From UHGV virus genome UHGV-1642993: 14,446 nt of DNA. One strand, given 5' to 3'. This DNA comes from a virus. Shown here piece by piece: positions 5,417 to 14,439 of the stretch. The notes below the pieces were generated by a model. The model saw only the letters and a list, made by a program, of their open reading frames with translations. It was not told the DNA's origin and ran no database searches. Both the position numbers and the translations under genes were made by a program. How positions within the stretch are numbered: position 1 is the stretch's first letter; each line of letters opens with the position of its first letter.

Positions 5417-5441
5417 AAAAAAGAAGGGGCCGAAGCCCCTT
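5417..5441 (-). terminator. Intrinsic terminator / attenuator directly after the coat gene
   Basis: Minus-strand transcript: AAGGGGC-UUCG-GCCCCUU (7-bp GC-rich stem, UUCG tetraloop) followed by CUUUUUU; begins 3 nt after the coat TAA stop. Confidence 0.65.
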
Positions 5442-11409: not shown

Positions 11410-11881
11410 GGTTGAATAGCTCCTTGATACGAGAGCGCCGCTTATCGCGATCTCCCTTATCAGGTGTCACGTCTTCAACTTGCGACTGCTCTTTGAGGCC
11501 CAAATCACGGGCGATGATGTTAGCGTTGAGAAGGTCAGCGGCTGCGCCAGAGAATTTCTGATCGTAGATGATGTCTTCCGCTCGTGATGTGACGTCAGAA
11601 AAACCTTCCATTGACCGGAAGGTTCCCCATGTTTGCCTGGTGATATCAAGGAAGGTACACAATCCTGAAATAGTCATGGCTCGCATCTTAGGGACATTAG
11701 CCTTAATTATTTCTCCCTGATATGAAAATACCTTGCCCTCCCATAGCGGGTTATCATCAGCCCACTCGAAGTATTCACAACAAGCAGCCCACAGCGCCTC
11801 AGGCGATTCGAATTTAGGGTTTCGCCCATGACTACTGCGGGCCTCCCAAAATCGGTTGCCCTTTGGTGCTGCCATATCCAT
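11387..11881 (-). CDS. terS: Terminase small subunit, P22 gp3-type (162-164 aa)
   Basis: [38 protein letters not shown]... and C-terminal [56 protein letters not shown] match P22 gp3 as recalled; two candidate ATGs (11881, 11875). Confidence 0.9.
11587..11608 (-). other. Candidate pac (packaging initiation) site inside terS, diverged from the P22 pac sequence
   Basis: Minus-strand GAAGGTTTTTCTGACGTCACAT (encoding EGFSDVTS) occupies the position where P22 gene 3 carries its pac site (recalled as GAAGATTTATCTGAAGTCGTTA, encoding EDLSEVV); 14 of 22 positions match. Contains the palindrome TGACGTCA. Confidence 0.4.
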
Positions 11882-12256: not shown

Positions 12257-12514
12257 CTACTTCGTTTTTGCTTCCGCTCTTTTACGGCGGCGCTCTTCTT
12301 TCTTCTCGGCGTTTGCCATGTCCATGAATGCCTGCATGATCGAGTTCCTCATCATGTAACTGACAAAGTGATGATTGACGCAGCCGTTGAGACGGAGTTG
12401 CTCGCCAAACTGATCAACCGAGGCCAGCACTTGCATCATGTCCTTCTCACCTTTCATGAACTCAGAGAAGTCGCGCCCCGCTCTGGAAGCGCATTCAATG
12501 ACGCGATTATTCAT
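12257..12514 (-). CDS. Small hypothetical protein (85 aa) with a basic C-terminal tail (KKEERRRKRAEAKTK)
   Basis: ATG at 12514 overlaps the upstream TGA stop (ATGA coupling); no recognisable domain. Confidence 0.45.
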   Translation of the reverse strand: MNNRVIECASRAGRDFSEFMKGEKDMMQVLASVDQFGEQLRLNGCVNHHFVSYMMRNSIMQAFMDMANAEKKEERRRKRAEAKTK

Positions 12515-13062
12515 CCTGGAAGCCCTGGGATCGTAATCTGCAGCTGGTTAGCCAGGGTATTAATCTCAGCGACCAATACAGGCTTCGTATAACGCCATGC
12601 AGCAAGTCCTTGTCCGCAGAAGCTCGCCATGTCCTTCTTCTGGTCAAACTCATGGCACTTCATGTTGAGCTGCGCACTTAAGCTGTTGCGATGCTGAAGC
12701 TCTCCGGTGAAGTAGTCATCGAGGACCTTATATGCCGCGTACTTGAAACCGGGGTTTAACCAGGCAGCATAATCGTAAGCAACAAACTTCCCGCCATAGG
12801 TTCCGCCGTGTACGCCGCGGGCAGTAAAAACCACAGATTCGTGGTTTTTCTCCAGCTCGGCCAGGAACTCTTTGGTCTGCTTGTTTCGCAGATAGTGGTA
12901 AGGCGATTCAGCATCACTTTTGCCACTGGCTTTCCACATATCGGTGAGGCAGATCATGCCGTCTTCTCCGACACGGATTGGTTGATTGAAGAGGGTTAAT
13001 GATTTCATTTCGCTGATACCTTTTGGTGGTTGAGCCTGTTCTCGTAGATATGGGCAGCCCAA
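12511..13062 (-). CDS. KilA-N-like domain protein (183 aa from TTG at 13062; 165 aa from the internal ATG at 13008)
   Basis: N-terminal segment IRVGEDGMICLTDMWKASGKSD....YLRNKQTKEFLAEL fits the KilA-N DNA-binding pattern as I recall it; first ORF after the lysis-cassette terminator. Confidence 0.5.
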   Translation of the reverse strand: MGCPYLREQAQPPKGISEMKSLTLFNQPIRVGEDGMICLTDMWKASGKSDAESPYHYLRNKQTKEFLAELEKNHESVVFTARGVHGGTYGGKFVAYDYAAWLNPGFKYAAYKVLDDYFTGELQHRNSLSAQLNMKCHEFDQKKDMASFCGQGLAAWRYTKPVLVAEINTLANQLQITIPGLPG

Positions 13063-13157
13063 GAGCGGTCAGCGTTACCACTGCCCTATCTCAAGCTCTA
13101 CCCCGAAAGGCTCTTGGTTGATATGCGCACGAGAATGCGCGGGTTTACTGCAGGCGT

Positions 13158-13181
13158 AAAAAAGCCCCGCTATTGCGAGGC
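13158..13181 (-). terminator. Intrinsic terminator at the end of the lysis cassette, overlapping the Rz1 stop codon
   Basis: Minus-strand transcript: GCCUCGC-AAUA-GCGGGGC (7-bp stem including one G-U pair; the Rz1 UAG stop lies in the loop) followed by UUUUUU. Confidence 0.5.
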
Positions 13182-13493
13182 TCTTGATGATTCGATTTTC
13201 CTGATTGCTGCCTTATCCAGATTGCACTGCCCTAGCGCCGTATAGAGCTGAGCGTTCAACTCCAGACTTGCCTGCCACGTGAACGGAACCGCCATTCCGG
13301 GGATCGGCGTGTCTGCTGTCAGGTCAGCGCTTATCGGCACCACCGGGGCCGGAACGTAAACTGTTTTCGTATTCCCGCAGGCTGTCAGCAGCGGCAGAAG
13401 GAACAAGCTGGTTAGCACACGGATCGCCTTCAAGCGCCTGCCTGATGTAGACAATGCGCGTCTCGCCTTTTTTGGCCAGTTCGTTCTTTGCAT
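13170..13493 (-). CDS. Rz1: Rz1-like o-spanin (outer-membrane lipoprotein), in the +1 frame overlapping the 3' part of Rz
   Basis: Lipobox LLPLLTAC followed by a Pro-rich mature region (VYVPAPVVPISADLTADTPIPGMAVPF). The ORF's ATG at 13493 would give a 39-residue leader; an in-frame TTG at 13433-13431 gives a typical 19-residue lipoprotein signal (MKAIRVLTSLFLLPLLTAC). Confidence 0.7.
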   Translation of the reverse strand: MQRTNWPKKARRALSTSGRRLKAIRVLTSLFLLPLLTACGNTKTVYVPAPVVPISADLTADTPIPGMAVPFTWQASLELNAQLYTALGQCNLDKAAIRKIESSRASQ

Positions 13494-13710
13494 TCTGGGT
13501 AGCCTGTGAGATGTCGCGGATGAGGTTCATCGTGGTGATCACGTTTCTGGTGATCGCCTCCGATGTGTCTGCCCTGACCGTCGCCTTATCGCGCTGGTCT
13601 TTGTAGGTGATGGCGTTGTCGCGGTAGTGGTTTACGAATAAAACCAGCACGCCGATTAACGCCAGCACCAGCAACTGTAGCCAGTAACGCTTAACCAGCG
13701 CGCCAATCAC
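13324..13710 (-). CDS. Rz: Rz-like i-spanin (128 aa)
   Basis: N-terminal signal-anchor TMD (WLQLLVLALIGVLVLFV) then a charged periplasmic helical domain; GTG start overlaps the lysozyme TGA stop (GTGA); directly downstream of the lysozyme gene. Confidence 0.75.
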   Translation of the reverse strand: MIGALVKRYWLQLLVLALIGVLVLFVNHYRDNAITYKDQRDKATVRADTSEAITRNVITTMNLIRDISQATQNAKNELAKKGETRIVYIRQALEGDPCANQLVPSAAADSLREYENSLRSGPGGADKR

Positions 13711-14147
13711 GACAGGAACAGAGCGCGCTCCGCCTCACGCCGACGGGTCAGCCCATTCAGGACCTTGCCACCTGCTTTATTCCAGCGCAGGAACTCATCG
13801 GCTGCGCCAGCGTAATCACCGGCGTTGAGTTTTCGCAGGAGAGTCGATGTCGATAAAGATCGGGCTCCGAGGTTATAGGTGAACGACACCAGGGCGTCGA
13901 ATTGCCCCTGAGTCAGACCAACTTTAACCAGGCGAGACACGTCGCTTTCGTAGCTGACAAGTCCGGTCTTCAACAGGCGCTCTGCCGTTTCCTGATTAAT
14001 TGTCATACCGGCACGGATCGGTTTACCGTCGACAGGCTGAGTCCAGCCATAGCCAATCGTCCACACTCCGACGCTGTCCTGGTACGCGGTAAGCTTGCAG
14101 CCTTCGAACTCTTTGATCAGGGCAATGCCTTTATCACTGGTTTGCAT
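13707..14147 (-). CDS. Endolysin, T4-type lysozyme (glycoside hydrolase family 24), P22 gp19-like (146 aa)
   Basis: Catalytic-region pattern LIKEFEGCKLTAYQDSVGVWTIGYG (Glu, Asp, Thr triad spacing) and C-terminal RRREAERALFLS match the P22 lysozyme as recalled; SD (GGGGA) before ATG; overlaps the holin stop by 14 nt. Confidence 0.9.
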   Translation of the reverse strand: MQTSDKGIALIKEFEGCKLTAYQDSVGVWTIGYGWTQPVDGKPIRAGMTINQETAERLLKTGLVSYESDVSRLVKVGLTQGQFDALVSFTYNLGARSLSTSTLLRKLNAGDYAGAADEFLRWNKAGGKVLNGLTRRREAERALFLS

Positions 14148-14439
14148 TCTTCATCCCCGTCAGACGTTCCCAGAAATAGGTCAGAGCCACGGAGCCCATC
14201 GCCCCGCTAATGCCTGACGTAACCAGAATCATGTAAAGGCTCAGCCCACTTTCAACGCTGATCAGTCCACCAATGAGACCGGTAAAGCCGGACACTGCAA
14301 TTTGTGCCAGCGCATTAATCCAGCTCCAGGTGGCTTTGTTCTGCTTAACGTCAATAAGGTATCGGACCAGGCCGCCCCAGCATGACAGAGCAAGGACAAT
14401 CAGCCATGACACTCCGGCAATGCTTTCTTTATCTTGCAT
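14134..14439 (-). CDS. Putative holin with three predicted transmembrane segments (101 aa; 5' end may lie beyond the window)
   Basis: Three hydrophobic stretches (IAGVSWLIVLALSCWGGLV, WSWINALAQIAVSGFTGLIGGLI, LSLYMILVTSGISGAMGSVALTYFW) and a short charged C-terminus; directly upstream of the lysozyme gene. The reading frame stays open to the window edge. Confidence 0.7.
   Translation of the reverse strand: MQDKESIAGVSWLIVLALSCWGGLVRYLIDVKQNKATWSWINALAQIAVSGFTGLIGGLISVESGLSLYMILVTSGISGAMGSVALTYFWERLTGMKNANQ

Follow-up and report, generated by a model that had tools for sequence, protein, structure and literature searches.

A terminator-like hairpin at the border between lysis genes and a conserved leader in the late operon of a P22-like lambdoid phage

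Introduction

In lambdoid phages the Q-modified RNA polymerase ignores intrinsic terminators. Accessory genes can stand between the conserved genes of these phages as morons, i.e. as a promoter, a gene and a terminator inserted together, a definition that reportedly goes back to Juhala et al. 2000. It is paraphrased in PMC2629481.

The late operons of P22-like phages contain internal terminators whose roles Casjens and co-authors stated to be unknown; for the terminator of phage L two ideas, both unproven, were put forward, namely partial attenuation and the stopping of transcription begun without antitermination (PMC8022706). The effect of translation on an intrinsic terminator is documented for lambda tR2. 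When the upstream gene's stop codon was moved from 28 to 5 bp ahead of tR2, termination in vivo fell from about 90% to less than 10%; it was regained when translation was removed, as a ribosome that follows the polymerase closely keeps the hairpin from forming (Li et al. 2016, PMC4824070).

The element analyzed here belongs to an already known kind, with a standard terminator annotation in related phages, and its novelty is low. P22, HK97, HK022, phi80 and epsilon34 carry the same hairpin after their lysis genes. Six phage records (HK75, mEp235, mEpX1, HK106, phi80 and epsilon34) annotate it as a Rho-independent terminator or simply as a terminator; these annotations are predictions, none of which cites an experiment. 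In P22 it reads GCCUCGC AGAU GCGGGGC GUUUUU and lies about 40 nt after gene 15; it is present in the sequence of the P22 RefSeq record without annotation. We compared with these systems the corresponding hairpin of the virus genome UHGV-1642993, using a stretch of 14,446 nucleotides referred to below as the window.

Results

The hairpin follows the lysis cassette and precedes the accessory and packaging genes

Every gene of the window is encoded on the minus strand, and the genes follow one another in the P22-like order (Table 1). The layout is that of the late operon of a P22-like lambdoid phage. Pfam gave matches for its proteins, whereas NCBIfam had none for Rz1, Rz, KilA-N, orf85 and orf80. 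The hairpin separates the lysis cassette from the accessory and packaging genes (KilA-N, DUF2560, TerS and TerL). The accessory gene that stands between the leader downstream of the hairpin and the packaging genes is KilA-N here, Rha or an antirepressor elsewhere.

The window ends at the start of the holin gene; the late promoter, the qut site and Q are known from relatives. In the closest complete E. coli genome, which carries the MLI104K1 prophage (97.6% identity over the junction), Q lies upstream of the holin; PR', qut and Q are also annotated in HK75, mEp235, epsilon34 and phi80. Since the Q gene occupies this place in the closest relative for which upstream sequence is available, antitermination read-through of the hairpin is expected for late expression. 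At the threshold of the scan, no sigma-70-like promoter was found on the minus strand from 13157 to 13009, i.e. between the hairpin and KilA-N, so that KilA-N and all the later genes depend on this read-through.

Table 1. Features of the window around the hairpin, and terminators annotated in related phages (positions in the window unless an accession is given)
Feature	Position	Strand	Basis or remark
Holin	14439..14134	minus	PF16083
Lysozyme	14147..13707	minus	PF00959
Rz-type i-spanin gene	13324..13710	minus	ORF table; Pfam DUF2570 match weak and under the cutoff; relatives annotate DUF2570 or a Rz-like spanin
Rz1 / LysC-type o-spanin gene	13170..13433	minus	overlaps Rz in a different frame; start uncertain; Pfam PF23793 LysC E = 4.5e-14; LLTAC lipobox
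Rz1 stop TAG	13172..13170	minus	T and A end the loop, G opens the 3' arm; ORF table, sequence
Intrinsic-terminator-like element	13158..13181	minus	sequence, folding, strict scan, covariation, annotated orthologous elements
Hairpin 5' arm GCCUCGC	13181..13175	minus	sequence
Hairpin loop AAUA	13174..13171	minus	sequence
Hairpin 3' arm GCGGGGC	13170..13164	minus	sequence
Hairpin U6 tract	13163..13158	minus	sequence
Conserved structured leader, 149 nt	13009..13157	minus	between U-tract and KilA-N ATG; homology, 26-sequence alignment, consensus fold
KilA-N / ORF11CD3 gene	12511..13008	minus	Pfam PF04383 E = 3.6e-15, PF10549 E = 2.4e-13; first gene dependent on hairpin read-through
Genes after KilA-N, in order: small ORF, DUF2560 gene like P22 orf80, TerS (PF16677), TerL		minus	
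Second strong terminator-like site, AAGGGGC UUCG GCCCCUU then CUUUUUU	5417-5441 (hairpin 5441..5424)	minus	-12.1 kcal/mol; strict scan
Annotated terminator, epsilon34	NC_011976 41071-41094		
Annotated terminator, phi80	JX871397 43609-43631		
Annotated terminator, HK75	NC_016160 35368-35396		
Annotated terminator, mEp235	NC_019708 35488-35510		

The hairpin has the sequence-level properties of an intrinsic terminator

The initial annotation had placed an intrinsic terminator, with its hairpin and U-tract, at 13158-13181; the element occupies exactly these positions, on the minus strand. It reads GCCUCGC-AAUA-GCGGGGC-UUUUUU, i.e. a 7-bp stem made of six G-C pairs and one G:U pair, a tetraloop and a U6 tract. 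The 24-mer folds at -12.0 to -13.2 kcal/mol (z = -4.9 at -13.2) and none of 200 shuffles is as good. In a 41-nt context the fold is more stable, at -17.0 kcal/mol (z = -3.4, no shuffle as good), because the upstream AAGA pairs with four of the U's. In a fold of 101 nt the terminator hairpin is the sole content of the centroid structure. The folding energy, a calculation that the initial annotation had proposed, is thus not weak.

We then scanned both strands (2 x 14.4 kb) for perfect stems with a dG of at most -10 kcal/mol, after which the following 7 nt contain five or more T. This strict scan returned three sites in the window, all on the coding strand, among which the hairpin at 13158..13181 ranks best. 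Sixty dinucleotide shuffles gave a mean of 0.27 sites, and none of the 60 reached the quality of this hairpin. The second strong site (Table 1) is found 4 nt past the stop of the coat gene, ahead of a small ORF and of a gp4-like tail accessory gene.

A consensus promoter and terminator scan of the window does not list the hairpin. It was probably overlooked because the stem is extended greedily, A:U and G:U pairs consuming the T-tract; the consensus scan thus misses the strongest terminator of the window, and absence from its list is not evidence of absence. At the gathering score no Rfam family matched in the window. A permissive search returned partial hits only, to the terminator parts of the RsmY, Phe-leader and Leu-leader models, which scored 17-18 bits where the cutoffs are 50-57. 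Judged from its letters and predicted fold, the element has every sequence-level property of an intrinsic terminator.

Another inverted repeat was noted on the minus strand at 11603-11623, about 260 nt into the small-terminase gene: ACCUUCCG GUCAA UGGAAGGU followed by UUUUCUG, with a perfect 8-bp stem and -10.4 kcal/mol. The pac site of P22 is located within gene 3.

The structure is conserved on the coding strand

As the stem sequence is of a generic kind that recurs in many unrelated settings, covariation was counted only at leader-anchored loci. Variation was sampled through viral contigs that carry a conserved block about 25 nt downstream, the hairpin itself being no criterion of selection. 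About 77 of the 85 distinct loci obtained in this way have a 7-bp GC-rich hairpin followed by T5-7, 12-57 nt upstream of the anchor. Their loops vary freely (AATA, GAAAA, GAT, TTCG, ATCC, TTACT and others) and their stems include GCCUGAC/GUCGGGC, GCCUUGC/GCAGGGC and GCCUUGC/GCGAGGC. In the 23 distinct hairpins 98.8% of the cells are paired, where controls with a slid 3' partner reach 39-54%; two pairs are changed on both sides. The value is 98.4% of the stem cells in the 26-sequence alignment. More divergent phages have the stems GCCUCGG/CCGGGGC (Klebsiella RAH1) and GCCUCAC/GUGGGGC (Hafnia Pocitis76); by inspection, RAH1 provides a third pair changed on both sides, the independent events being few overall.

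The G:U pair of the stem is retained in 21/23 and 26/26 sequences. In the U-tract of the 26 relatives, four T columns are invariant and two more are nearly so. The hairpin of the coding strand is more stable than its complement in all of the 33 distinct variants (mean -11.6 versus -7.7 kcal/mol), which indicates that selection acts on the RNA of the minus (coding) strand.

The stem GCCUCGC/GCGGGGC followed by U5+ occurs in 106 distinct viral-contig loci, about one quarter of which carry the leader. The unrelated contexts include the neighbourhood of a tRNA gene and sites ahead of genes starting MSFFHGVT. Part of the apparent conservation of the stem could thus be convergence on a generic design; in the leader-anchored set the shared flanks argue for homology.

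A proposed back-stop against unmodified polymerase

We consider that the hairpin is probably a constitutive Rho-independent terminator of canonical form, placed where the lysis genes meet the leader with its accessory gene and acting as a back-stop against unmodified polymerase, and that its overlap with the Rz1 stop is incidental. The strand-specific structural conservation, the statistical excess, the position and the co-occurrence with the leader are the observed part of this explanation. During lytic growth, RNA polymerase modified by a Q-type antiterminator would start from the late promoter, ignore the hairpin and transcribe the lysis, accessory and packaging genes as one transcript. Unmodified polymerase, coming from leak-through at tR' or from spurious or accessory-gene promoters upstream, would stop at the hairpin. 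The KilA-N and terminase genes would thereby be kept strictly Q-dependent. We infer the actual termination, the read-through by Q and the insulating role from established lambdoid biology, and we prefer, with moderate confidence, such a back-stop or insulator to partial attenuation. A study of P22 small RNAs, which reports no RNA ending at the hairpin, speaks against termination there, although transcripts with this end would be too long for its method (PMC13397905).

A conserved structured leader follows the hairpin

Conservation of the 149 nt between the U-tract and the KilA-N gene extends to at least 26 diverse phage loci, in which they precede KilA-N, Rha, antirepressor-like and other genes. 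Expression of rha was reportedly tied to IHF by Henthorn & Friedman 1995, and the leader may contain an ATCAA core. No Rfam family exists for the leader. Its helices were evaluated on the 26 sequences with RNAalifold and explicit pair counts; since the alignment was not guided by structure, the figures are rough. Overall 88.7% of the cells are paired, against 37-57% in slid controls, and 20 pairs are changed on both sides, against 6-11.

The predicted structure comprises a hairpin GCGCA-loop-UGCGC (GCGC-box), the helices GAGC(C/U)U : AGGCUC and GAGA : UCUN, and an inner hairpin. In addition, a helix CCUUU : AAAGG (93% paired) involves the Shine-Dalgarno region of the next gene. It is crossed by the helix CCAAGAG : CUCUUGG, in which 7/7 pairs change on both sides and only 72% of the cells are paired; this would be either a pseudoknot or an alternative pairing.

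In the ES18-like phages Oslo, a Salmonella phage, and SPN3UB, the hairpin, the leader and KilA-N are found after a DUF6246 gene (ES18 gp17-like) of the structural region, not after lysis genes. The three thus move as one cassette. We put forward, tentatively, a wider reading in which the hairpin is the 5' end of a mobile cassette made of the terminator, the leader of about 150 nt and a gene of the KilA-N, Rha or antirepressor type. The leader would be an undescribed cis-regulatory RNA masking the Shine-Dalgarno sequence, the terminator would limit the leader and its gene to antiterminated late transcripts, and translation of the LysC-type Rz1 would add a ribosome-dependent read-through.

Neither the consensus scan nor the strict scan found a terminator-like site on the minus strand from the KilA-N gene to TerS. 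The classical moron model was rejected, as the accessory gene has no promoter of its own and no terminator downstream.

The leader also bears on a role of the hairpin in RNA stability. A P22 small RNA, P22F, was located at 21,301-21,389 of P22, its 3' end 6 nt before the start of rha, in a 2026 study (PMC13397905). Its position falls within the P22 version of the leader. A stable RNA at this place implies processing or differential stability near the junction, and the hairpin could accordingly be mainly a stabiliser of mRNA 3' ends or a barrier to processing: after cleavage in the leader it would shield the lysis message from 3'-to-5' exonucleases and would set the relative stability of the operon segments, the stopping of polymerase not being its main role. 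A link between terminator strength and upstream mRNA stability is investigated in PMC11696848, and a terminator has little to do during the lytic growth of a Q-antiterminated operon. Yet the invariant U-tract directly after the stem is a hallmark of termination that an exonuclease barrier does not need. We regard stabilisation as the main role as unlikely. A stabilising role is compatible with that of back-stop, the two not being exclusive.

The Rz1 stop codon falls within the hairpin

The first base of the Rz i-spanin stop codon lies 145 nt upstream of the hairpin foot. The Rz1 frame continues into the hairpin and ends AGA GCC UCG CAA UAG, so that its last residues, RASQ, are encoded by AGA, the 5' arm and the loop. 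The Pfam LysC match ends about 5 residues short of the C-terminus and the RASQ tail is outside the domain. From the TTG at 13433, Rz1 would start with a signal peptide, MKAIRVLTSLFLLPLLTAC, that holds the lipobox. The initial annotation was right to call this ORF Rz1, as the LysC match and the lipobox indicate (Table 1). It located the Rz1 stop in the loop, which is true of two-thirds of the codon (T and A), the G belonging to the 3' arm. It also had the hairpin and the U-tract overlap the last Rz1 codons; the 5' arm and the loop do so (Ala-Ser-Gln-stop), whereas the U-tract lies wholly after the stop.

Existing annotations of the Rz1 start conflict (window 13343-13493): the E. coli RefSeq annotation gives 57 aa and that of the Enterobacter phage CobraSix 78 aa. 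The former starts past the lipobox and the latter leaves only about 10 residues before the lipobox Cys. The TTG at 13433 would yield a normal lipoprotein signal, while both of these calls start too far downstream for a complete one.

In the 85 loci, the last long ORF ahead of the hairpin has its stop anywhere between -150 and +9, counted from the foot of the stem. Lambda-type Rz genes, which end ...QCLK*, stop 5-114 nt ahead of the hairpin, which is intergenic in most relatives. The +9 position is found with LysC-type overlapped Rz1 only, the tails RKIESS-, RQAEKK- and NCQKEN- all finishing R(A/T)SQ*. In the Erwinia phage Midgardsormr38 the LysC-type Rz1 ends at a UGA in the 5' arm (AGA GCC UGA C) of a GCCUGAC variant; this stop in a different stem indicates that reading into the hairpin is typical of LysC-type Rz1. 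Conversely, the homologous Rz1 of the Klebsiella phage RCIP0114 has no hairpin and has another tail (...EEGRRSTLQ*), and several unrelated ORFs end ...ASQ* or ...ASH* in a generic GCCUCGC-loop-GCGGGGC-U5+ hairpin. From these comparisons the overlap looks incidental: Rz1 enters the sole open frame of the 5' arm and runs until the TAG. It does not appear to be a conserved property of the terminator, and a designed coupling is not supported. The suggestion of the initial annotation that transcription and translation terminate together at this site, taken as a designed feature, is thus not upheld, since the hairpin is intergenic in most relatives and is overlapped only by LysC-type Rz1.

By analogy with lambda tR2, the overlap should make the operon parts less well separated, not better. 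The terminator would be suppressed by a ribosome that translates Rz1 and follows the polymerase closely, and untranslated transcripts would terminate; the extent of this suppression depends on how often the overlapped, out-of-frame Rz1 is translated near the polymerase. The terminator may therefore be leaky at this locus even in the absence of Q. The separation of lysis genes from accessory and packaging genes unless antitermination reads through, as initially proposed, agrees with the position of the hairpin and with Q in the relative, but the overlap with the stop is expected to make it less tight (PMC4824070).

The same effect could be the function of the element, i.e. a translation-gated attenuator in which the ribosome that ends Rz1 blocks folding and couples the read-through into KilA-N and the packaging genes to Rz1 translation. 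The loss of termination at tR2 (PMC4824070) supports this, as does the fact that every LysC-type Rz1 joined to the hairpin ends inside it, with three different preceding tails and, in Midgardsormr38, with a TGA in the arm of another stem. But the last stop lies 5-114 nt upstream in most relatives, so that the element as such is not gated. The position of the RASQ tail outside the LysC domain, the other tail of a homologous Rz1 without hairpin and the ASQ* and ASH* ends of unrelated ORFs also argue against it, and the overlapped Rz1, out of frame with Rz, is probably little translated. As for an attenuator of the leader-peptide type, no conserved competing antiterminator pairing was found upstream of the hairpin, the upstream sequences of the lineages being unrelated. 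We therefore think gating by Rz1 translation improbable, and retain the constitutive back-stop.

The hairpin is a joint between modules

Megablast showed how the junction is assembled. CobraSix matches the Rz/Rz1 region at 96% and its match ends at the last T of the U-tract; in HK97, HK022, HK75 and the mEp phages the match starts at the foot of the stem and extends across the intergenic leader into the next gene. From these alignments the hairpin is, as far as sequence tells, a mosaic joint: it appears to travel with the downstream leader and gene, various lysis cassettes being fused to it.

Such a block at a module boundary could be a linker for recombination with no important role in expression. 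The breakpoints of two donor lineages coincide exactly with the two ends of the element, through which no fewer than five or six unrelated upstream sequences are linked to the same leader. Nevertheless, pairing kept through compensatory changes and a freely varying loop are not expected of a pure DNA linker, nor are the retained G:U pair, a mismatch on the other strand, and the constant U-tract. A role as linker alone is thus very unlikely.

A hairpin arisen by chance, or a terminator serving the plus strand, for which the A6 run ahead of the hairpin on that strand draws the outline of a bidirectional terminator, is hardly credible and was rejected, given the 0/200 and 0/60 shuffles, the plus-strand fold (a C:A mismatch in the stem, -11.7 kcal/mol, z = -1.26) trailed by TCTTGATG without a T-tract, the 33/33 variants that favour the coding strand and the lack of any plus-strand gene leading into the hairpin.

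Discussion

Read as a constitutive back-stop, the hairpin would add one more well-supported case of strong intrinsic terminators at module boundaries inside the single-promoter, antiterminated late operons of lambdoid phages, and the strand-specific selection on its structure argues that such intra-operon sites have a role. On a translated RNA, a stop codon inside a terminator hairpin would more likely lower termination than make an operon boundary sharper. The leader is a more interesting lead than the terminator: it appears to sequester the ribosome binding site of diverse KilA-N and Rha-type genes, and it could explain how accessory regulators of this kind, which are often toxic, are held in check.

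Compared with morons, the unit described here likewise places a variable accessory gene between conserved modules of the late operon and is mobile, as its other position in Oslo and SPN3UB indicates. It differs in that the terminator is upstream of the gene, no promoter of its own was detected, and a structured leader stands in the place of the promoter. The resemblance to lambda tR2 lies in an intrinsic terminator within reach of the ribosome that ends at an upstream stop (PMC4824070). The tR2 case is an engineered reporter, with a highly translated gene and a stop 5 bp before the terminator, whereas here a natural overlapped gene has its stop inside the hairpin.

With phage L the locus shares a predicted intrinsic terminator at a module boundary, in an operon that here probably also has a single antiterminated promoter. 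The terminator singled out in that work is the one after the procapsid module, not the hairpin at the end of the lysis genes, and its counterpart in the window is the site at 5441..5424 (PMC8022706). The closest likeness is to the terminators annotated in epsilon34, phi80, HK75, mEp235, mEpX1 and HK106, with which the present element shares the GCCUCGC/GCGGGGC stem, the U-tract, the position after the lysis genes and the downstream leader. In these six phages the hairpin has other loops and an intergenic position, some 30-35 nt past Rz or another small ORF, whereas here a LysC-type Rz1 enters it.
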